DNA from: Hormiphora californensis
Lineage: Eukaryota > Animalia > Ctenophora
Assembly: GCA_020137815.1 (NCBI GenBank)
Contig: CM035359.1
Coordinates: 4,340,001-4,404,000, forward strand
DNA: 64,000 nt
Direction: 5' to 3'
Shown here one piece after another: positions 6,505 to 25,400 of the stretch. The translations under genes were made by a program, and so were the position numbers. The notes beneath the pieces were generated by a model. That model saw only the letters and a list, made by a program, of their open reading frames with translations. It made no database searches and was not told the DNA's origin. Each line of letters opens with the position of its first letter. Within the stretch, counting starts at the first letter, position 1.

Positions 6505-7107
6505 TTATCCACGGGGAGGAGGGTGTCGGAGTCCCTTTCCGAAGTTAAGCCTGGCCTGGTTACACCCGTGGTGTATAACGATGGGGTTGTTGTTCTTGGG
6601 ATTGGGACTTCCGTTAAGTGGATGCCAGCACTTGCCACTGGTCTTGTGCTGGATGGATCCGCTAGGGAGGAACCTAAACCTGGCGTGAGGCTTTCCACAG
6701 TCACGGTGAAGGACGAGGGGCTCGTTGTCGCCGGGCTTGGGCTTCCTGTGGTGGGGTACAATACAAAGTCCGGAGGTTGTGTGTCGGATGGATCCGTCGG
6801 GGAGATAACAGAATTCAAGGCGCTTTCCACCACATCCAGTATGTGTGACGATCTTGGTTCCGGGGGGAGAGTTGGGTCGACCGCCGAGAGGGTGGACACA
6901 CTTGTTGCTGTGGTGCCGGATAGGGGCACAGTTGGCTGAAAATGGTAGGTGTCAGAAGCTATTGAATATAGACCCGAAAAGACAGTAGAAAATTATAGAT
7001 AAATGTCTTGTCTTGATCAGACTCTCTCGTGCTAATAACGGCTAAATAGAAAATAACTTACAGTAAACCAGGGCGATGAGAGCCGAGAAAACAATGAAAA
7101 GCTTCAT
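6505..7107 (-). CDS. Secreted mytilectin-like beta-trefoil lectin, 158 aa, 2 exons (7107-7062, 6935-6505)
   Basis: Exon 1 encodes the signal peptide MKLFIVFSALIALVY, followed by a 126-nt GT-AG phase-1 intron. Exon 2 reads SNCAPIRHHSNKCVHPLGGRPNSPPGTKIVTHTGC...IRHTTSGLCIVPHHRKPKPGDNEPLVLHRDC...IQHKTSGKCWHPLNGSPNPKNNNPIVIHHGC...RG*. It has three ~45-aa repeats matching the MytiLec pattern H-x-x-SGK-x-x-HPxGG-x-x-P-x-N-x-x-LV(L/I)H. The frame differs from the ORF-track call 6474..6929. Confidence 0.9.
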
Positions 7108-9764: not shown

Positions 9765-10437
9765 AACGGAGACTTGTGACACTTGTTGAAACCCCATATA
9801 TGGATCTTTTCCCTCCCCCTGGATCTTTTCAAGCAACAATCTCTATACGAGGAGTAACCCGGATGTCAGAAATGCTATATGTTCACACATTATTTCACAA
9901 TCACACCACCGATCACGCCGCATGAAGAAGTGTTACTGCTGACAAGACAGATTGTCTTTCTAAGACTCTGTTGGGGTGGTTTAGCGAATTTAACAGGTAG
10001 ATCAGGTACGGAATGGTAGTGAGATGATGCCAAGCTTACTAGATCACTGATCCACTTTTAACTGGGTAACGAAATCCATACCAATATATTTTCTTTGCAA
10101 TAAATACTGTACCAGAGCAATAGAGCATTGTGATCCTGACGGTCAAATACCTGAATAAATAGCTCTTGCCTCTTACAAACAGAGTCGTCTGTGGATTAGA
10201 CAGCTGCCTTTAAGATTGCAGTTGTACCTTATCTAATTTTCACCAAACAGGGGTCATGAATCATGAACGAATGGTGAACGAATGGTGAGAGAAAGAGAAA
10301 GAAGAAATGATAAGTTATAAAAGACATGCGCTTCATAAAATTCTCTACATTTTACGTCAATGTTTGCGTCCAGATTATCTCCAGAAGAAGAGAGAGGTGA
10401 GGGGGAATAAAGAAATCTGAGATAGAAGCTTAGAGAG

Positions 10438-10469
<32 letters not shown>

Positions 10470-10971
10470 CGGAGAGTGAAGTAGGAAATATGAGCTTACT
10501 AGGTCATGCTTATTAAATCAGTTTTTCACCTTATTGAATCAGAGCTCCGTCTGTTATCAGATTTTCTTCCCTGCTCTTATCATGTTTCACGGAGCTGCTT
10601 TTTTTCAGCACACCTTTCCATGTGTTTCTACTAGCTGATTGGTTACTTTTTTGAGTCGCTTGACACTGTCCGTGCTATGAACAATTCAACACTTTTTAGC
10701 ATTGTCAATTATATTTGAGCAGGAAGCAATTAGTTGTACTTTTGCTTGGTAACGAAATAACCCCTCCCTTGCCGGCGCACGAAGGTCGCGAGGTTATTTC
10801 GTAACCAATGCTTTTGCTCAAGTGTTAGTGCAATCAGTGGCAAATACTAAAGTTTTGAAATAAAATGTTTAAACAATACTTATTTGCTTATTTACTTATA
10901 CAATTATGTTATTTTGCCGGTTTTTAACTAACAGATTATACTGATTACTGACCCTTCTACGCCCCTTATAG

Positions 10972-11585
10972 TCTGTAAGGCTACACGTTGGCGCAATTGA
11001 GTCAGTAGACTTTTTGGAAGTAAGTTATTCATTCCAAATATTGAAATAACTGATGATTTGGAATCCATTCCAAATCATCAGTTATTTCAACCTTTACCAA
11101 CTTTTACACATTGAAGTTATTCTCAAATTCCTTACCTTTCCACACTCCTTACCTCTCCAGTCTCCATGCTCCTTAACTCTCCACACTCCTTATAAGGAGT
11201 GTGGTAAGGTGGCAAGGCCTTACCTTTCCACACTCCTTACCTTTCCACACTCCTTACTTTTCCACACTTACTTCTCCACATTCCTTACTTTTCCACACTC
11301 CTTACTTCTCCACATTCCTTACTTTTCCACACTCCTTACTTCTCCACATTCCTTACTTTTCCACACTCCTTACTTCTCCACATTCCTTACTTTTCCACAC
11401 TCCTTACCTTTCCATACTCCTTACCTTTCAACACTCCTTACCTTTCCACGCTCCTTACTTTTCCACGCTCCTTACTTTTCCACATTCCTTACCTCTCCAC
11501 ATTTCAGATTCCGATTGATGACCACCAAGGAGTAATTCTCAAGCTCGAACAAGAACTACCTTGGGATACAGGTCCAGGTGGATAG
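10972..11585 (+). CDS. Non-AUG upstream coding region (uCC-like) of the ODC-like gene; leader exons 10972-11019 and 11508-11610
   Basis: The spliced frame SVRLHVGAIESVDFLE|IPIDDHQGVILKLEQELPWDTGPGG* has no in-frame ATG. Candidate AUU starts are at 10996 (gcaATTg) and 11508 (gaa|ATTccg); TAG at 11583-11585. Splice sites are canonical (ttatag|, |gtaagt, ttcag|, |gtaatt). Confidence 0.65.
11128..11500 (+). repeat. About 19-20-bp tandem repeat (TTCCACACTCCTTACYT)
   Basis: About 18 units filling the leader intron, with degenerate copies to about 11770. Explains ORFs 11053..11535 and 11201..11518. Confidence 0.9.
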
Positions 11586-11909
11586 CACCCCCTGAAAACT
11601 AAATTGAAAGGTAATTCACATTTCCCACGTAACAGTCTCCTAGTTTCCACAGTACATACTAAAATTCCTTACTATCTACTGAAATCCACTTCTCCACACT
11701 CCCCAGTCCCTACTTTCCACACTTCTTACTTTTCCACACTCCAGACTTTTCCACATTCCTTAAATTTTTCTGCACTGCTCACCTTTTCATACCCTTCACT
11801 GTCCACTGATCCAAAATCTTCAATAATTTTATCGGAAAGAATTTTCCCGTAACTTTTCCATCCTCTTATAACTCTCTATCTTCCTATCCCTACCTTGCAG
11901 ATATTATAA

Positions 11910-14900
11910 ATGGACACCTCACTGATTTGTGCACAATTGAACACGGACATGGCAGGATCAGCGGCAGCGGCAGAACAAAATAATACAGTATTCCTTCTCT
12001 CTACAGCCATTTACCACGATATTGCAAAGGTAATTTTACTAGCGATTAGGAAAGCTTATACCATGGTACTAGTATACAGAACTGTTAACTGTGATTTCCT
12101 CATACTTAGATTCAAGATCAACTAGGTTCAGGAGCCAAGCTTCTCTTTGAGCCGGCGGGAATTTGTGGAAACGAATTCTTTTGTTTCCTCGCGGGATTAA
12201 ACGTCGGAATAATTGCTTCCAACCAGGTATAACAGTGAGTCAGGTAAATGTAAGGAGTGTGGAAATTCATACAATAAGGATAGCCATCGAATTATTATCG
12301 TGGAATTGTTGATTTACGTCGGATATTTTGAAGTTGTCACCCCTTCAAAAATTCCATAATAGATATCTTACAGGAAGTTTTGGACGCAGCAGAAAAATCA
12401 CACACGAACTTCGATTCGATCCTTTTGGGCGAGAATGTAATCGACAACTCTCTCTACAAGTAAGAAATGCATTCAGTTGAAACTATATCATTGTTCACCT
12501 AGTCACGGTCCTATTATAATAGTAATACTAGCCAGGATCCTATATGCTATAGTAGTAGAGACGCGATCATTGCTTCTACCTATACCCATCTCCCACTTCT
12601 ATAACTTTTTTATACTGAACTGCAATTTTTCCAGGGCAGCAAGTGTGCACGGATGTAAATCCTACACTGCCACAAGTGTATCAGACATGACCAAGATCAC
12701 GACACTAGTCGGACACGACTGCCAGTAAGTTATACACGTTCCTTGGTGACATTGACACCGTGCGCGACCAAGATTGAGCTCACACACAGGTGTCTGCTCC
12801 GCCTCAAAAAGGGTCGTTTCTTTCAAGGGATGTTGCACGCGATCCACTGGACCGATTTGCATCCGGTTTGTCGCAAAAGACTACAAATGATCCTAATATA
12901 CTGGAAAATACCCGAGAAGTTTGTCTGTGAACAGGAAGTGGGTCAAAATTGACACTGAAGTCAAACCTATAATCTGGCTTCCGAGAGTTTCTGCACTACG
13001 CCCATGCGATTTAGAAGATATTGGGAGATATTTTGATGCAATTAGCATCAGCTATTAATGCCGGGTATTTTCCAGTACTCACAAGAGTTCAACCTATCTT
13101 CTGATACCCTCAGATTCATTCTACACCGTCTGGGAGTGGTGCAAAAAGGCTCGGAAGCCAGATTATAGATTTGACTTCAGTGTCAATTTTGACCCACTTC
13201 CTGTTGACAGACAAACTTCTCGGGTATTTTCCAGTAAACTAGGACCAATTTGTAGTCTTTTGCAACAAACCGGATGCAAATCGGTCCAGTGGATCACGTG
13301 CAATTTGGCTTGAAAGACTCGACCCTTTTTTAGGGGGCGGAGCGGACACCTATGTGCGACCTCGATCTCGCACGCACTAGGTGTCAATGTCACCAAACAC
13401 GTTCCAAAGTTAAGCATTCTGATTATCATCGATTAGCTGTTGATCCATCATGGCATTTAGCCCCCCCCCCCCTCATCCTGCCCCCTCCCGTCCTGCAGGT
13501 TTGTATTGACAGCTCCCACGCTCCCTGAACTGGATACCATGCTCTCCCAGTGTGTTCTCCCCCCAACTATATCTGTGGATCTCCACAATACTGATCTAGA
13601 GGCACTCAGCAGGCTGATGATGAAGTGGAATGTAGGAAACATCCACGTGGGAAGTATCACTAGTGAGTAGTTAATAATTAACTTATTATTAGTTATTTAA
13701 TAAATTATCTAATCAAAACAGAGGTCCTGATCGGTGTTAGGATAATAGGCAGATGTTTTGGCCCATGGTATCACACTATCACTGATAACAAATAAAAACA
13801 AGGAAGTTTTAGTTCAACAGTTTACACATGTTTCAATACAAAATTGTATTTCATCAGAACTGAATCACACTTGTCCCGTTCCAGGTAAAGAAAAGATAGA
13901 ACAAATTTATAATGTCATGTTATACAACATCTCGCAAAATATATAGAAATAGGTTATACTAATAACGTGATTTATAAAAGGAATAAAGGTACTAGATTCA
14001 TATCTATTAGATCAGGATAGAATGGTAGAGACCCTCGGTAGCCTCGAATTTGAATGAGTACTGATTTGAGGATGCAAAATGATAATCGTAATCTAATGTA
14101 TCTAATGGCGTCATTATAGCTTTGTTTCGACTTAACCGAGTACAAGCCAGCCAGACGCTTGTAGAACCGCTCTGCTTCTGGTCCGAATGTTCCGATTGTT
14201 GAGAACACAAGTGGGGTGAAGGTAGCTCGTTCCACATTTAGGATTCTCTGCCCATAGGCCCTTTTCTTCTGACCTTCATGGATCTCCGCAGTTTTCTCGA
14301 TGGTGTTAATTTGATTTGTTGGTGCCAACGAGTTAACCGTTCCAGGTTTCTTGCTTGCTCCTTCATAAAGCCATCCAATTAGAGATTGTATTTCTTGTGA
14401 TGTCTGCAACTACCCATGATCTCGCTTCTCCGGTTTAGGAGTTGGTGGTTCCTGGACTCTATCAAAATCTCCATCTTTTCGGCAGTGCACAGGTCACAGA
14501 ACCGATCCCCAATTCTGTACGGTCTTCCCTTTTTCCTCACTTTCCAAGTGATCCCGAATGTGATCCCCCTGTCCTTCAACTCCCACACCTTTTCAGACAG
14601 CCTTGTAGATGTTCTTTTTTCGGAGTTGTTGAATGTGTGCTTGTGCTGGCTGAATCGGGTTTTAAATGAGTTCCCTGTTAACCCGATGTAGAGAAATTTC
14701 TGGTTGCAGCTGGTCTTCAGTTGAGCTTCGTATACCAATGATTCGGTGAGGCACTTTCCATCCAATGGACAACTTCCCTTGTCCTTACAGTTGCATAATT
14801 TATCAGGCACATCCGTTGGTTTCGGGCCCCCATGTGCGAGTTTTTTGTTGTGGGCCTTTATCCTCGATTCCATGTTTTTCATGCAACTGTATGATACCTT

Positions 14901-16622
14901 GAGAGTGTTTTTGTTGAAGATCTGGCTGTAAATGTGTCCTGCTGGAAAGTATCTTGCCACTAAACCAAGAAACTTTCGTCCCAGGTCCGTTTCAACATCC
15001 ACAGAAAATGGTGGGTTAAACCATATTACCCTTCGCCGTCCTTTCCTTTTCTTTTTCCCTTTTCTCGCCACGTCTTTATATTCCGTTGAGAAGCCCTTGT
15101 AACCACTCTGCTCCAAAGCTCCTTGGTAGTGATATCGTGCCGCTTGGAAAGCACTTGGACTGGATGACAATCGTCTTATGCGATCCATTACCATGTCAGG
15201 GATGTTCTTCATATATATATATATATATATATATCACTGATAACTAAATTACAGGTGTGAACGAAGTTGGAGATTTAGCATCTCTTCTCAGCCTGCTACC
15301 AACACCTCTAAATCCTGTGGTGACTCTATCACCTTCCTTCCTTGATCACTCAATGTTTGTGGCCACCCGGGTCCTGGATAAGATCACCAAGGTATGTAGC
15401 AAGTAGCAACCCCCCTCGCAGATATTGTTCTCAGACAGTGTTTACTAAAATGGTAGTACCTATAGAGGGCGCCAAAACCCGATAGTGCTCGATCAATGAT
15501 TGAGAGCTGGTTCAAACAAAGGGAAACAAGAAATTTTGTCAAACAAATGTTTCACCCGTAAGGGATCTTCAGTGACAGTAATAAACTACTAAATGGTAGT
15601 AAATATTGTCTGGTCAAAGCTCTGTTAAACCATATATTATGCGTGAGAACACCCAGAGTATTACCCTGATTCAGTTTCATAGTGCATAATATGGTTTTTG
15701 TAGATCATATACCAACTGATTCTCTATATAAAACCGGTAAGAATACATCCCCTACAATTCTCCAACTAGTCACCCTTCTCCCCTCAACTAGTCACCGTTC
15801 TCCCCTCGGCCTCAACTAGTCACCCTTCTCCACTCAACTCTCCCCTTAGGATAATGGTGAGGTAGACGTGTATGTTGACATGTCGGTGTTTGATGAACTG
15901 ATTTGCTACATGGATGACATTGACAACATATCCATCCTCAATGGGAACAAGGAGGAGGGAGCTGATCAACCTGCCACAATTCTCGGTGAGCATGTTAACC
16001 CCCCCCCTCCCCCCGGCCGGAGATGACTGAAAATCCATAAATTACAATCCATGCTTCTCCATAGAAAACAACCCATATACTATCGTATCCCCGGTATAAA
16101 TACATATCTACTGTATAATTTTCATCACACGTGCAGGTAACAGCTATGATGAGAGCGATGTGATAGCAGTCGAGCAGCCCGCGTCCCACCTCTCCACGGG
16201 AGATTGGATCTTCCTCTCTAACATCTCCCTGGTCTGTCTGGAGGGAGGCTGTGATGTTCTCTTACTGGACAAGGATAACAGGTATAATGAAACTACGTAC
16301 CAGGAACCGACCGATCAACAACCAATCAGAACTCGTTATTTAGGTCACGTGACTGGTTATCAGGCAATCAGGGACCAGTATTTCCTGATTCGGTCGGTTC
16401 CTGCATTTGACCCATGTTTCTTTCTTTTTCTAAGATGAGAAACTATATAGGAGGGTTCGGCAGATCAGTTCGATTCGATTAGTACGTTTCATCGAATTTA
16501 TGATTCTAAATTTTGTTTTCAGGGTGGTGTCTCGTGAGATATACGATCAGGAGGCAGAAAACTCTGCCATTCAACAAATTCCTACCACTAGGATGAGAAA
16601 CAACAGCATCATGGTCAACTAA
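11910..16622 (+). CDS. Catalytically inactive ornithine decarboxylase homologue (antizyme-inhibitor-like), 364 aa, 9 coding exons
   Basis: Exons 11910-12029, 12110-12226, 12374-12459, 12635-12724, 13499-13662, 15255-15391, 15850-15985, 16137-16281 and 16523-16622 are all GT-AG and phase-compatible (1095 nt). The protein is colinear with ODC: LAGLNVGIIASNQEVL...LYKAASVHGCKSYTATSVSDMTKI matches LAATGTGFDCASKTEI...IKYAANNGVQMMTFDSEVELMKV; VYVDMSVF matches YYVNDGVY; ILGNSYDESDVI...LSTGDWIFLSN matches IWGPTCDGLDRI...MHVGDWMLFEN. Confidence 0.85.
12743..13396. mobile_element. Mutator-like MITE with ~240-bp TIRs and a 9-bp TSD
   Basis: TTGGTGACATTGACACC...GGTGTCAATGTCACCAA, with TSD ACACGTTCC at 12734-12742 and 13397-13405. 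Confidence 0.88.
13818..13862 (-). ncRNA. Minimal type I hammerhead ribozyme of the Penelope element
   Basis: Minus strand CAGTT-CTGATGA-AATACA(attt)TGTATT-GAAA-C(ATGT)G-TA-AACTG: intact core, 5-bp stem I, 6-bp stem II, palindromic minimal stem III, GUA cleavage triplet. Confidence 0.85.
13887..14336 (-). mobile_element. 5'-truncated CRE-clade (RLE-type) non-LTR retrotransposon nested in the Penelope element
   Basis: VNSLAPTN...HEGQKKRAYGQRILNVERATFTPLVFSTIG.FG.EAERFYKRLA...RLSF...IRGYRG is the CRE C-terminus. 11-bp TSD CCGTTCCAGGT at 13876-13886 and 14337-14347. Confidence 0.85.
15537..15577 (-). ncRNA. Second minimal hammerhead ribozyme-like motif (solo Penelope pLTR remnant)
   Basis: Minus strand TGTCA-CTGAAGA-tCCC(ttac)GGGt-GAAA-C(attt)G-TT-TGACA: conserved core, 5-bp stem I, GUU triplet. 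Confidence 0.7.
16301..16403. mobile_element. Short MITE, CAGGAACCGACCGA family
   Basis: CAGGAACCGACCGA...TCGGTCGGTTCCTG TIRs. Another full copy at 26186-26307. Confidence 0.8.
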
Positions 16623-17491
16623 AATCCAATATTCAGTTAAAATCCTGGTTTTCTTTGTTGAGTAAGGAGTGTCCACTCAGTCCAGTGTCCACCCATTACT
16701 CAACAAGGTTTTCTCGGTTAAAGGGTATAGAGAAAGGGTTGAGGACCTTTCTACCCTTTCTCTTTACCCTACTAGAAGGCTACTAGAAGCTATATAGTGT
16801 CTGTAATGGGGTAAATGATAAAAGTGGGTAAATTTGGGAACTATATATATGTTTGTCTGCATGTTTGTCTGTTTTTAATCAGTAAGACTTTGACAAAAAT
16901 ACTCGTTTTGTGGTCAGCAGTTGTATTCTTGAAGATGCTGGAAGATTTTCTTTTGATCAGATCGTATAAAGAGTGGGGTGTCTAAAACCGAATTCATATA
17001 GAGTGTATAGTTATGATGATGACGTTGTGTACCTTTTTAAAGATACTGTGACTGATGTTAGCTACGCTCGTTTTAGTTTGGTGGAACGCGTTCAAAGTAC
17101 AATGTGATAATTAGCTTGATCTGGACTCTTTTTTAAACCTTTTAATGACAAACAGGTTGATTGACGAATATATTTTATTATAAAAATCTGATTCCATAAA
17201 AAACTTTTAGTTTTATTTACAAAAAACTGTTCTTAGCTCTTCGCATATCATCATCTCTCTTTGCCAAATGTGTGTAATACAGAACATTTATCATTTTATT
17301 TCACTCCCAGTTCCCACTAGATTCTAGAGATCAGGGTCGATTAAATGTTATGGAAGAATCCTCACTGTGCCCTAATTGTGTTCTCTCTTAAGTTACTCAA
17401 CAAGTTCTCTCTTCTCATAGCTTTTCAGTAAATCCGCCACACCACTTTAGGGATCCGAATGGTTGAGAAAGGCCGGGCTCAACAAGATATA

Positions 17492-17793
17492 GTTAGGAGT
17501 TGGAGGGTGCAACTTTAGACTTCTTCACTCGGGCTGGCACCTAGAACAGTTTTATGTTAAAAACTATAAAATTCCATCCAAATGTAAGCTACATTGGACA
17601 ATGGACATGCTGAATTTCGAAGCTGTATGTATCTCTTTTTGCTTACGATCTTTGTGTTTGAATTGTAACTGCTGGAATCACTGTCACTTTCCTCTGTTGA
17701 AATGATGCTATCTTTTGCTACAAAGAGAAACAAAATAAGATACTTAAACGGTGACAATAGGTGTGATCTGTGAAGAGCATATGTTCCGTTGGC

Positions 17794-19456: not shown

Positions 19457-22400
19457 TCAGAAGAAGACATTCTGATCTTTGGAGCACAGTTCAGCATTTC
19501 TCGGTCTATAGACGCCACACCATCCTGGCTGAGACCCAGGAGGTCCCACCAGACTCTCCGGTTCCCCAGAATCCTGCTCGAAACTCAGCCTGAAACTAAA
19601 CCTCTTCTCCAGTAGGTCGGCTGGTGGGGGCGTGGTCTGGGTTGCCATGTTCCTCCGTTTTGGTGGCGGTATTGGGACACACTGGGTACTAGTACTGGTG
19701 ACTCCACTAACGCTCCGTATCAGGGTGGGTCGTGTGGTGGTGGGTCGCATTGACCGGGGTAGAGTCCTCTGGATGCGGGATAGCAGGGTGCGGGGTGGAG
19801 GGGAGATGTACGCGATGTTATCATGCCACCCCTGATCATCACCAGCTGATCCTGAACCACCACCTGTAACTCGTGGGAGGCAGCTTAGAATACACATTTA
19901 GTTTGTTATGTTCTAACCCTCGAAACAAAGTCTAGCTAGGCAACGTTTAGTTTTTCATTACATTACATTACATAAAAGTTGTACATGTTCAAAATGGAGC
20001 TATAAATGTGATAAAGTCGGACCCCGATTTACCGGACACCCCGATTTATTAGGTAAAATTATCCTTTCCCCAAGATAACAACGAATCAACAAACTAACTA
20101 ACTAACTAACAAAATAACAAACAAACAAACAAACAAGATAACTTACTCAGGGGTGGGACGTATTCTTTTTTCTGTTTTTGTCGGAACAAAATGTAAAGAA
20201 GAATGAGGATGGATAGGACGAGGAAAAGACCGCAAATACCACCAGCACTTCCAACTAGAAGCGTCGTGTTTACACCTAATTTGATGGAAATTAGGTGATA
20301 ATTAAGTGGTAATTAGCTGTTAATGAGACGATAATTAGCTGTTAATTAGATGATTATCTGGGTATTAAACACATCATGCACAGTGTGCTATTTACTGACT
20401 TGAGTTTGTAGTGGAAACAACTTGATAGGAATCTCCATTTCCCTGATCCACAGGTCCCGGATCAACTATCATCTCTGCTGCACAGACACAGTTACACAAA
20501 CTGGTTACCATGGTTACCATGGTTAGTAACCATGGTTAACCATTATATAATAGGTTACAATACGAGAATTGAGGCTTCGCATAAAACAGGACAAAACTGA
20601 TCATGATTGTTCATTTGAATATACCTATAGAAATGGTTGCATTTGCATAAGCGTCCTCTCCCACTCCGTTGGATGCCATGACTATGTAAAGTCCCTGGTC
20701 AGAACTCTGGGCCTAGGAAAAACAGGATAGAATTAACATAGATAATACTGTTTGGAATGATTTTGTGAAATTTCGGTATCAGTAAACCCAAATGTCGGTA
20801 TCAGTAAACCCAAATAAAAAGGATATATAATTCCCTTTTTACAATTAGTTTTACCTCATCGATAATTAGTATGGCTGATTGTGCAGTGTACCGTCCACCT
20901 GTCACTATTGGTACCCTGTCCTCTCCCTAAAAATGTTAGAAAGATTGAAAATGTTTGAAAATATGCACCAAATCAAACTGTTACAGTAAATTTCTTTTGA
21001 TTCTTTTTCAATACTATTATTAAGTAAATAAATACCTTGTACCAAGTGACATTAGGTGTAGGATACCCATAAACGACTGCTTCAACTGTTATCTGTGAGT
21101 TCAGTTGAATACTAATATCTGACAGCGTAATACTGGGTGCTATCTCATGACCTGAAGAGATATAACCGCATTGTTACCATGGTTACCGCACGGTTACCAT
21201 GGTTACCGCATTGTTACAATATCACGCAGCAAGAGAGCTGTCACCACGGCCTGGTGCATGATGTGTTCATTTTCATAAACATATAGATCTCAAAAAACAA
21301 TTTCGTTTTTCATTTCCCATATGCATGCATATGCAGAGGTTTTAGGATATTTTACTTCCCTTTGATCATATTCAACTGATAATAACCTAGCTGTTTTGTT
21401 TCTCAGTCCTCCCTGCGCCAACAATGTATCGATAAAAAGCTTAATTATTGTTATTACTTAATTCGTTAACTTATAAGCTAGTATTTCACAGATAAAAATT
21501 GAAACTTTACAATCACAGAATGAATCTGATTCGGTGGTTTTCGATCATTTTCTTTGCCATGGCAACCCTTTTTGGACTATCCGGAAACACTCTTATAATC
21601 TACTCCTCTGTCCGATACAATTCTATCGACTTGGACGAAGTCTCCGTAATGTTTGTCCGGAACCTAGCGGTAGCAGATTTGATCTACACAGCCCTCGGTG
21701 TCCTACCCCGGTTTATCTCATCAGTTATCGATGGAAACCCCTTTGGCATTAGTTGGTGTGAGGTGATCTACTGGGCCAAACATATTTGTGGGATGGTGAG
21801 TCTGTGGACGATCACATTCATTACCGTCCACAAGATGGTGCAAGGTGCTAATGCCCTTCAGGGATATGATCTCATCATCCTTGGCATCTGGGTTCTTGGG
21901 CGCCTTGTGGTCCTCCTCTATTCTCATTATGGCTAGCATCGCCGTAGCTGGCCACCCCGTGTTTAGCTTTGATCCGGTTGACGCAGAATGTCGGCATAGC
22001 TGGACCAAGATAAGGAAAACTTCAAGAAAAAATGTCGAGATAGCAGAGTTGTGTATTGAGGTGTTTGGGGTGTTGGTTCCCTTGGTTACTACGTTGGTTT
22101 GCAACTCACTGCTCCTCAGTGTTGCCCTTCGGAAACGAATTACTCCCCGATCAGGCCTCAACTATAAGGCCCTAACTACCGTGGTAACCCTGACGACAGT
22201 GTTCCTAACAACCTGGTCCCTTTACCTATTCGGGGCACTAAGGAACCTAGTGGGCGGTGTCAACAAGTCAAATGATGGGTTCGCACTGGCCGAGAGTTCT
22301 TTGATTTGTATTGGAGTCATGGTGAATCCAATCCTGTATACAATTACCAATCGCAGGTTCTGCCTTTATGTCCGGTCCTTGGTATGCAAGAGGGTGGAGG

Positions 22401-25400
22401 ACGAAATAGAACCTCTTATTATTCATAGTTAGAACAGAAGATGAGGGGAAGAACCCAGTATTCCAGGTTCCTAAGTCGTCTTTAACAAACGAACAAACAC
22501 ACAGAACACTCCGTATTTTCCTAGTCTCAACTGCCAATTAATTCTTGGAAACCTTTTAAAAACAATTTCGTTGGTAAAATTTAATGATTTTTCTTTTGAA
22601 GATAGGGGAAGCTCTATGAAAAGTATTTGTCTTATTAAGTTGTGTTTTTATCTTCGTACACGGACACCATGGTCTTTTTGGTTGGTCCTATATGGTGCAC
22701 CATAGGACCAACCAAAAGAGACCGTTCCATAAAAATCTATGAAACCAAACCACCCACTCTACCCACAGACACCGCGTATTAAATAAACGGAATGGAACAA
22801 ATCCTTGTGTTTTAATAACGTACCTACTACAAAGTCAATATTAAGTTGAGCCGTATAAGTATCCACTTTCTGATTGACGGCTCGGCAGATGAGAGTGCCC
22901 ACATCACTTTCCCGAGCAGAAATAACACGAAGGACAGAGGTAACTTTGTTGGAAGTCGCCTGCTGGGTCACGGTATACCTGTGAAAAAGGGGATGAGCTA
23001 GGGGGTATTATATTAGTAGCTGCCCCATACACGATCAGAGGACGCACAGGAACACTGTGAGACAGCTGTATCAGAGTACCTCAGTATGGAGTGGCTTAGG
23101 GCTTAGGATATGGAGATAAGCACCCAGTTTACACAGTGATTGGGAGAGACCTCTGACTTTTTATAGAGTGGTGACAACTTATTCACGGATTTTAGAAATA
23201 CGGCACACGTGGAATCTGCTGAATCACAAGTAGACAACTAGGGAAAAAGAGAAATAATTCCCCCAGCAATGAAATTACCTATCATCATAAGACGCAGATA
23301 TCTCAGCACCATCTTTATACCACGTCACTACTGGGACAGGGTAGCCCAGCGCGATGCATGTTATCCAAATGTTCTGTGAGTAAACCGCCTCTGCAATATC
23401 CGGCCCCTCAATTGAAACTGGTAGGGTCATATCTGGAAAAAGTCGATGGGATAAGCTGAGAAAACAAGGTTAGCTTAGTAAAATGTTTCCAAGATCTCAG
23501 ATGCAGCTCTCGTGCTGCTCGCGGAATACACCGATCGAGCGGAGCGAGTTTTACACGTGTTAACTTACTCTTGACAGTAACTGACATGTAAGATTGTGTT
23601 ATCTCAAGGGTGTTATAACAAAAACATTGATACATCCCCGCCTCCGTCATTTCCAGCCCACTCATTATCAGACTGCCATCCTCTTGCTAGTGGGAGAGAG
23701 AGGAGGGGTTGTTGGGATATTAAATGGGAGAGGGGGGGGGGGGTGTTGGGATATTAGATTGGGGGGTGATGGAGGTTGTGGTGGGGGTGGGGTGGGGTGG
23801 GGTGGGGTGGTGTACTGGGGTGTTCCAGCCCATTCATTATCAGACTACCGTCTTCTTGCTAGTGAGGAAGGGGAGGATGTCGTGATATTGAATTGGGGGA
23901 TGGGTGTTGGGGTACTTGACAGATATTGGATCATCCAATCATTAATCTGGCTGTCATGTATTCCCATGTACCTGTAGCTTCAACTCTTGATATATCGAAA
24001 AAGGGGTGCCGAACCCGAATGATATAATATGATCATGGCACATACCTGAAATCGGTCTCCATCCACAATAGATTGCCCATCCCGTAACCAAAGAACAGAT
24101 GGTGGGGCGGTTGGATCTCCGCTAGTGTATGGGGTGCCTGCAAATAAGATTAAAATTGAAATGTGACCATGCATGCTATGTACTACTAATATGTATTGTT
24201 TAGTTGATATGGGCTGATGGTTTGAATAGCGCTACAATTGAGTAATTGATTCAGTGGATATTTGGTTTGCACTTTATATGGAGATCATGAGATAATGAAA
24301 CCAGCGAATTACCTGAGCATTGACAATCAAAAGTAAGGGGAGTAAGATGTTCCACAGTTTTAGCAGAGAGAACGGTATCAAATGCTATATCCTCTGAAAA
24401 TAAGTATTGATTAGAACCTATTTACTAATTATCTTTACCTAATCAAATAATTATAATTTACTGAATCAACCTCTCTCTCTTTACCGATAACATAAAGGCG
24501 GACGACGACAACTGCGCTATCCGTGTATACGTTGCTGTACTGGCCCCAGTATGTACCCCTGTCTTCTGTTTTAACGTTCCTAATTGAGATATCAGTTATA
24601 AACTAATAATAGTAATATTATGAATGGAGATATCAGAATCAAAATTATAACAGTCCGTCATACACATTTTTATATGGAATTTTGTGCTCGTATTTTCTGT
24701 CAGAATCTGTATAACACGCACGTGAATTTGAGCCGCGGCGCGGCGCATCTGCACGTGCGGGTTTTCAAGAGAGAGTGAGAGACAAACGTACAACGTTAAT
24801 GTGCGTCTCTCTCTTTAATCTCGCACGTGAATTTGAGCCGCGGCGCGGCGCATCTGCACGTGCGGTTCTTCCAGATAGAAATTCCAAATAGAAATCCAAG
24901 ATAGAAATTCCAAATAAAAATGTGTATGACGCCGTGTAATGCAGCTGTTGAATGTTGGTTTATCAATTGTACATACGATATGAGGAGTTGTCGGCCGTAG
25001 TCAGCGGTCGAGAACCGGCTCCCGGAAGAAGTATCAATCTCAGTTGACACACCCAAGGTCCATTTGTATTGGGGAACAGGCCAACCTATAACACACAAGT
25101 TAGCAACTTCATAACTATGTATCCGTCGAAGCTGAAGCTGAGTAGCGTCTAAATACAAGTTCCACAATCGATACAGTGTATGGGCCGTCGACGAAATTTT
25201 ATGGTTAGTTGCAATAGTTAATTTTCGAATGACGTCATTATATTTATTAATATCTATAGAAGTTAGGTTAGGGCTGTGACTGCTATATTTGGTTTAGCAG
25301 ATATAGTGCTCACTTGGTGACATAGACACTTGGCGCGACCGAGATTGCGGGGGTCGCGCCAGGTGTCTATGTCACCAAGTACTCACCTGTAGCCCCGGCT

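Follow-up and report, generated by a model that had tools for sequence, protein, structure and literature searches.

An AUG-less upstream frame, conserved in one diverged relative and probably a polyamine-sensing brake, in the leader of a remote ornithine decarboxylase homologue

The window, which is the whole stretch of 64,000 nucleotides analysed, carries on its forward strand a trans-spliced gene whose main ORF encodes a remote homologue of ornithine decarboxylase (ODC) and whose leader contains an open frame without AUG. A first-pass annotation, made from the letters alone, had proposed this frame as a polyamine-sensing upstream conserved coding region (uCC) with LPW in place of PPW. The coordinates of the features are collected in Table 1. 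To follow the transcript we used contigs assembled from four RNA runs (X1 to X4), three of them with part of the stretch, which inform on presence and joints and not on levels; they were compared over 11502-16900 and 9790-11210. A sequence check of the named exons found the three leader segments bordered by GT/AG. The joint from 11019 to 11508 was seen in three of the four runs (X1, X3 and X4), the contigs of which stop at 11018-11019 and resume with the first letters of 11508, and a single X1 contig of 151 nt spans 10987-11019 and 11508-11610 with no difference. The joint from 11610 to 11901 is listed in one run of four (X3, GT..AG), with a short side of 64 letters. Run X2 has no contig over the leader exons, an absence of cover that proves nothing. 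Six of the eight joints of the main ORF were present in RNA contigs (12226 to 12374, 12459 to 12635, 12724 to 13499, 13662 to 15255, 15985 to 16137 and 16281 to 16523); those from 12029 to 12110 and from 15391 to 15850 were predicted from GT/AG and frame. The exons, frame, peptide, stop and 34-nt spacer given in the first-pass annotation were all borne out by the sequence and the RNA joints, including exon 11508-11610, whose absence from the mRNA would have spoken against the proposal.

Table 1. Features of the gene and its leader (positions in the window)
Feature	Position	Strand	Remarks
Leader exon 1	10972..11019	+	5' end is the spliced-leader trans-splice acceptor, AG at 10970-10971
AUU, likely uORF start	10996..10998	+	G at -3 and +4; 33 codons to stop
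Intron 1, GT-AG	11020..11507	+	hairpin 11036-11095, minisatellite 11218-11501
Leader exon 2	11508..11610	+	in X1, X3 and X4 contigs; last 25 codons of uORF, stop 11583-11585, 25 nt of spacer
Out-of-frame AUG uORF, 5 codons	11518..11535	+	nested in AUU uORF; weak context, U at -3, A at +4
uORF tail, ELPWDTGPGG-stop	11553..11585	+	candidate ribosome pause site
Exon 3	11901..12029	+	9 nt of leader, then main AUG 11910
Main ORF, 364 aa, 9 exons	11910..16622	+	remote ODC homologue, predicted catalytically dead; stop 16620-16622
Main ORF exons 1-5	11910-12029, 12110-12226, 12374-12459, 12635-12724, 13499-13662	+	
Main ORF exons 6-9	15255-15391, 15850-15985, 16137-16281, 16523-16622	+	

Contigs of X3 and X4 extend 5' of 10972 with foreign letters. 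The Hormiphora spliced leader is 44 nt long and its sequence is printed in PMC8527503; comparison with it showed that the 21 foreign letters in X3 are its 3' end and that X4 carries a variant. The tail of the spliced leader gave no match in the window at up to three mismatches. Position 10972 is thus the trans-splice acceptor of the mRNA, and the spliced-leader tail on the contigs makes it very likely that the animal is a ctenophore, which agrees with the early-branching animal suspected beforehand. The exon start proposed at 10972 was right as a position; it marks a spliced-leader acceptor instead of a transcription start. The genomic ATGs at 10808, 10865 and 10906 were considered as leader starts and rejected, because all of them precede the acceptor and lie outside the observed leader. 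A short element at 10745-10808, upstream of the trans-splice site, turns up in three runs within RNA contigs that are otherwise unrelated.

Several elements lie in the introns and around the gene. A 29-bp hairpin, 93% complementary, begins 16 nt past the donor of intron 1, and its miRNA-like Rfam matches are all sub-threshold. A 17-nt minisatellite occupies both leader introns (11218-11501 and 11714-11759), with single reversed copies at 11193-11210 and 12246-12265. Another intron of the gene holds an inverted-repeat element (12743-13396) with arms of about 275 nt that are 86% alike. Contigs of X2 and X3 differ from this element mostly by A>G, clustered at 13143-13296 among the places listed; over the whole stretch A>G accounts for 16 of the 20 listed places in X2 and 29 of the 57 in X3. 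The cluster looks like ADAR editing of the hairpin, and other copies or alleles could also produce it. The long intron contains, on the reverse strand, a GIY-YIG endonuclease ORF (14379-15233) that is probably a fragment of a Penelope-like element, and a short intronic element at 16300-16404 is matched by many RNA contigs, whose depths add up to more than 1000 in three runs; it is a dispersed repeat of many transcripts. Farther away are an exon with a ricin-type beta-trefoil lectin domain (6505-6948, reverse strand; E 2.7e-06, just below the Pfam cut-off) and an intronless rhodopsin-family GPCR spread over two overlapping frames (21496-22432, forward strand), a pseudogene or an assembly error.

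The relationship of the main protein to ODC emerged from profiles of mixed composition, which scored 20.6 bits (reached by none of 500 shuffles) and 21.7 bits (none of 1000), mainly over the C-terminal domain. Narrow profiles gave 8.4 bits (actinobacterial only), -2.3 bits (stramenopile only) and 3.6 bits (animal only, nearly all fish), and the N-terminal segment by itself gave no significant match (7 of 100 shuffles). Aligned globally with the highest-scoring animal ODC, a target picked for being the best, the main protein scored 107 against 18 +/- 20 for shuffles. The spacings between motifs are close to those of ODC (18 vs 21, 51 vs 50, 61 vs 58 and 21 vs 21), and the distance from HVGS to EPGR is 31 as compared with a median of 77 in ODCs, with no GG in between and no glycine loop; the joint at this gap has RNA support. 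Searches with single main-ORF exons yielded no Pfam match in ten, nothing in PDB and one NCBIfam match in nine, at E 0.13. None of six candidates obtained with exon 16139-16279 from the 90% protein collection was a ctenophore orthologue, exon 13500-13661 matched only an unrelated repeat protein in the 50% library, and the ESM Atlas search for orthologues (best 0.87) was uninformative. Two bacterial genome bins (L010 and L023) include contigs with eukaryote-type ODCs whose best relatives are fish and stramenopile proteins, which is likely bin contamination.

An active ornithine decarboxylase has the PLP lysine Lys69, Cys360, a glycine phosphate-binding loop and EPGR. By alignment numbering, the main protein has no Lys between residues 50 and 87, where Lys69 would fall, and a Tyr at the position of Cys360, so that decarboxylase activity is very unlikely. 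We consider the protein to be an ODC homologue that lacks Lys69, Cys360 and the glycine loop and is predicted to be catalytically dead; the dead ODC of the first-pass annotation thus stands, as a remote homologue without the catalytic Lys and Cys. Among the rows listed, the X3 contigs differ from the coding exons at nine places, and of the eight changed codons seven are silent and one is I>L. Changes that are mostly silent suggest a maintained gene and not a pseudogene, and the main ORF appears to be under purifying selection. As far as its sequence tells, the protein shares with antizyme inhibitors the trait of being an ODC homologue without decarboxylase residues. The antizyme contacts of ODC include Asp361, Tyr331, Asp134 and Val137 (PMC4595762); the first two appear to be kept in the main protein and the other two are not, the region equivalent to ODC 117-140 being weakly aligned. 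Whether the protein would bind antizyme, a question we judge separately from the uORF switch, is an even call. Another role reported for inactive ODC homologues is the poisoning of active ODC in a heterodimer (PMC5574924).

The upstream frame ends 34 spliced nt ahead of the main AUG and lies in a frame other than that of the main ORF. It has no AUG, and the spliced-leader tail on the X3 and X4 contigs places an in-frame stop directly ahead of exon 1; any translation of the frame must therefore begin at a non-AUG codon. Of the near-cognate codons in frame, the AUU at 10996 has the best context, being the sole one of the four AUU codons with a purine at -3 and G at +4. It lies 75 nt from the Pro codon of LPW and 99 nt from the stop. 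Both this codon and its flanks are unchanged in X4, the run from one diverged relative, where the AUU codons at 11508 and 11535 read AUC and those at 10996 and 11514 are kept. We regard AUU 10996 as the likely start of the uORF. The first-pass annotation had highlighted the AUU created across the splice junction (11508); this choice is not upheld, for the codon has C at +4 and reads AUC in X4, which makes 10996 the likelier start. The frame itself is ATG-free as described, but the leader as a whole is not, since the nested AUG uORF at 11518-11535, every letter of which is the same in X4, had been overlooked.

The test for codon-level conservation, which the first-pass annotation had called for, was run on the frame that it had named beforehand, with X4 as the only diverged relative in the comparison. 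Over the 133 leader letters compared, X4 differs from the window at 14 (4 + 1 + 9). Ten of these differences could be located, all of them in the 28 codons of 10990-11561 and eight at third positions; the other four, two upstream of AUU 10996 and two placed by deduction within about 11563-11592, were left out of the codon count. In the uORF frame, 9 of the 28 readable codons are changed, seven silently and two by F>L and E>D, whereas in each of the other two frames none of eight changed codons is silent, and one of the two gains a stop. Divergence in the uORF frame amounts to a pS of 0.43 and a pN of 0.03, and when the differences were placed at random, two or fewer amino-acid changes occurred in 0.35% of 200,000 trials (P 0.0035). 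The AUG-less frame is, by this comparison with one relative, conserved at the amino-acid level, and the expected conservation of its codons held there with P about 0.003.

The tail of the frame shares in this conservation. The residues E, L and P are conserved in X4 through silent changes, and a Glu belongs to the E-P-P-W consensus of uCCs. The Leu of LPW was kept by way of a two-base silent Leu-to-Leu change, which argues that LPW is no recent decay of PPW between these two sequences. Within 11563-11592 at least 28 of 30 letters agree with X4, and the two differences, which are unplaced, fall in or just after the stretch from W to the stop. The X4 contig has a spacer of 27 nt after the uORF stop, followed by the same first three main codons. 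Since the spacer measures 34 nt here and 27 nt there, the peptide has been kept and not the phase; for the same reason, and because X4 has an extra in-frame stop, fusion of the uORF into the main ORF by readthrough or frameshift was rejected. Unchanged blocks around both start codons are no longer than expected by chance (P 0.24). The X4 contig extends about 86 letters into the main ORF, yet at 80% none of the main-ORF exons is matched by it, which hints weakly at a uORF more conserved than the main ORF across these two sequences. A search for the pattern of the uORF tail in metagenome contigs gave two matches, both taken as chance; the one inspected lies in gene-dense bacterial-type DNA.

In the AZIN1 switch, eIF5A is impaired when polyamine is high; ribosomes then stall at PPW and queue, initiation at AUU increases and the main ORF is repressed, and PPW is reported to be crucial within the uCC (PMC9082881, PMC11550727, PMC11058473 and PMC8705083, the latter point in one or more of them). 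A stall at LPW had been envisaged for the present frame. Yeast deprived of eIF5A pauses at GG, PG and GP dipeptides and at stop codons, and its eIF5A-dependent stall motifs include GPG, PGG, PPW, IPW, NPW and GPW (PMC5499558, Figure S4). LPW does not occur in that motif list (Figure S4, in part 1 of the two-part supplement) and the tail motifs GPG and PGG do, so that the stall of the first-pass annotation may be retained with its site moved to the tail; as the list holds more than 200 motifs, the presence of GPG and PGG is weak evidence. The strongest disome signal of the mouse AZIN1 uCC lies on a GP dipeptide (bioRxiv 710061). We consider a pause at GPGG-stop more likely than one at LPW.

Taking these observations together, we think it probable that the 33-codon AUG-less frame, with its likely start at AUU 10996, acts as a polyamine-sensing brake on the predicted dead ODC homologue. 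When polyamine is low, the majority of scanning subunits would bypass both upstream codons, AUU and nested AUG, each of them weak, and go on to produce the main protein. At high polyamine, eIF5A would be impaired and the few ribosomes on the uORF would pause in the tail from LPW to GPGG-stop; the queue behind the pause would detain subunits at the AUU, which lies 75-99 nt upstream, giving more initiation on the uORF and less main protein.

The conservation data would equally fit an uORF that is translated and selected for its peptide without being controlled by polyamines, acting by constant damping, through another cue or through nonsense-mediated decay. The motifs tied to polyamine control, PP and PS-stop, are missing here, the main protein has diverged far enough that it may have lost its tie to polyamine control, and the uORF stop lies upstream of nine exon joints, as the version with nonsense-mediated decay would have it. 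We nevertheless hold this reading to be rather unlikely, since the non-AUG start, the Pro-Trp near the end, the length class and the ODC-family host all match the polyamine-controlled uCCs, and the tail is built of Pro/Gly motifs of the eIF5A-sensitive kind.

It is quite improbable that the main control lies in the nested AUG uORF or in AUU 11508 or 11514, with AUU 10996 being minor. The AUG uORF is identical in X4, AUU 11514 is kept and the AUC found at 11508 could initiate weakly; but six silent or conservative changes lie beyond the stop of the AUG uORF and three changed codons lie ahead of 11508, which favours the long frame, and both the AUG and AUU 11514 have a pyrimidine at -3. The identity of eight codons around the nested AUG uORF is, moreover, within chance. 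Very improbable, too, is a leader that has been conserved as RNA, for signals of splicing, trans-splicing or structure, or by chance, its frame being untranslated. In its favour, the comparison is a single one, and a good-context AUU uORF of at least 25 codons arose in 338 of 20,000 dinucleotide shuffles of the 160-nt leader. The same uORF with PW near its end arose in none of the 20,000, these features having been picked after the sequence was seen. Against conservation as RNA or by chance, the changes sit at positions that are silent in just one of the frames (P about 0.003), and over 9790-17500 no Rfam family scored above threshold, the eight weak matches all falling outside the leader exons. 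One fold of the leader RNA, made without a shuffle control, offered nothing testable.

Switches of the uCC kind escape gene callers, and those tested come from only a few mRNAs. If the present one is genuine, it would be a natural substitution of PPW, a motif thought essential, under selection in a deep-branching animal, and would let one ask directly whether a di-proline is required for polyamine sensing or whether any eIF5A-dependent pause will do. It would also bear on the age of the animal switch, in that the animal uCC would either be as old as the animals' last common ancestor or have had a further independent origin. Apart from this, the uORF offers a way of approaching an ODC pseudoenzyme so diverged that standard searches give it no name.

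uCCs of ODC homologues have been described in six animal phyla and in Pezizomycotina, Basidiomycota and Zygomycota, with lengths of 22-100 codons; nearly every one contains a pair of adjacent prolines close to its C-terminus, and those of animals end in Pro-Ser (PMC2811004). The accessible parts of PMC2811004, which lie outside its list of the six phyla, do not name ctenophores among the hosts. Among the titles and abstracts covered by a literature search, the scope of which lay outside the supplementary alignments of Ivanov 2008 and 2018, none dealt with a ctenophore uCC, and the term uORF is absent from the ctenophore papers that it found. The frame studied here resembles the known uCCs in being a conserved non-AUG uORF in an ODC-family leader with a length inside the 22-100 codon range, and differs from those of the six phyla in having neither adjacent prolines nor a terminal Pro-Ser. 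Of the marks of a uCC, it thus shows the ODC-homologue leader (a remote one), amino-acid conservation, absence of an in-frame AUG and a kept AUU in good context, and it has LPW instead of the adjacent prolines and Pro-Gly-Gly-stop instead of Pro-Ser-stop.

The leaders of the ODC family in animals host AUU-initiated uCCs with nested AUG uORFs, and vertebrate AZIN1 leaders also carry conventional uORFs of unknown effect (PMC2811004). With the vertebrate AZIN1 uCC the ctenophore frame has in common a likely AUU start, an AUG-less frame under coding constraint, Pro-Trp near the end, a nested AUG uORF, and a main ORF for an ODC homologue without catalytic residues. It is unlike it in having LPW for PPW and GPGG-stop for PS-stop, and in its 33 codons as against about 50 in AZIN1 (in the mouse, PPW is residues 47-49; bioRxiv 710061). 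The ctenophore mRNA is also trans-spliced, and its main protein is far more diverged, with about 46 residues of the barrel missing. The uORF of yeast HOL1, at which an eIF5A-dependent, polyamine-controlled pause takes place at or near the stop, provides a model for a pause at GPGG-stop, although its main ORF encodes a transporter and its motif is PS-stop (PMC11550727). As to the protein, the planarian paralogues ODC5 (Cys360Val) and ODC6 (Lys69Ser) are catalytically altered, and the accessible part of the source describes no uORF for them (PMC5574924); they resemble the ctenophore protein in that key catalytic residues have been replaced in an ODC homologue kept under selection, and differ from it in that the latter lacks both residues and the glycine loop. 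By its layout, the ctenophore frame would work like a uCC that is without two sequence marks of the family, and would represent no new kind of mechanism.
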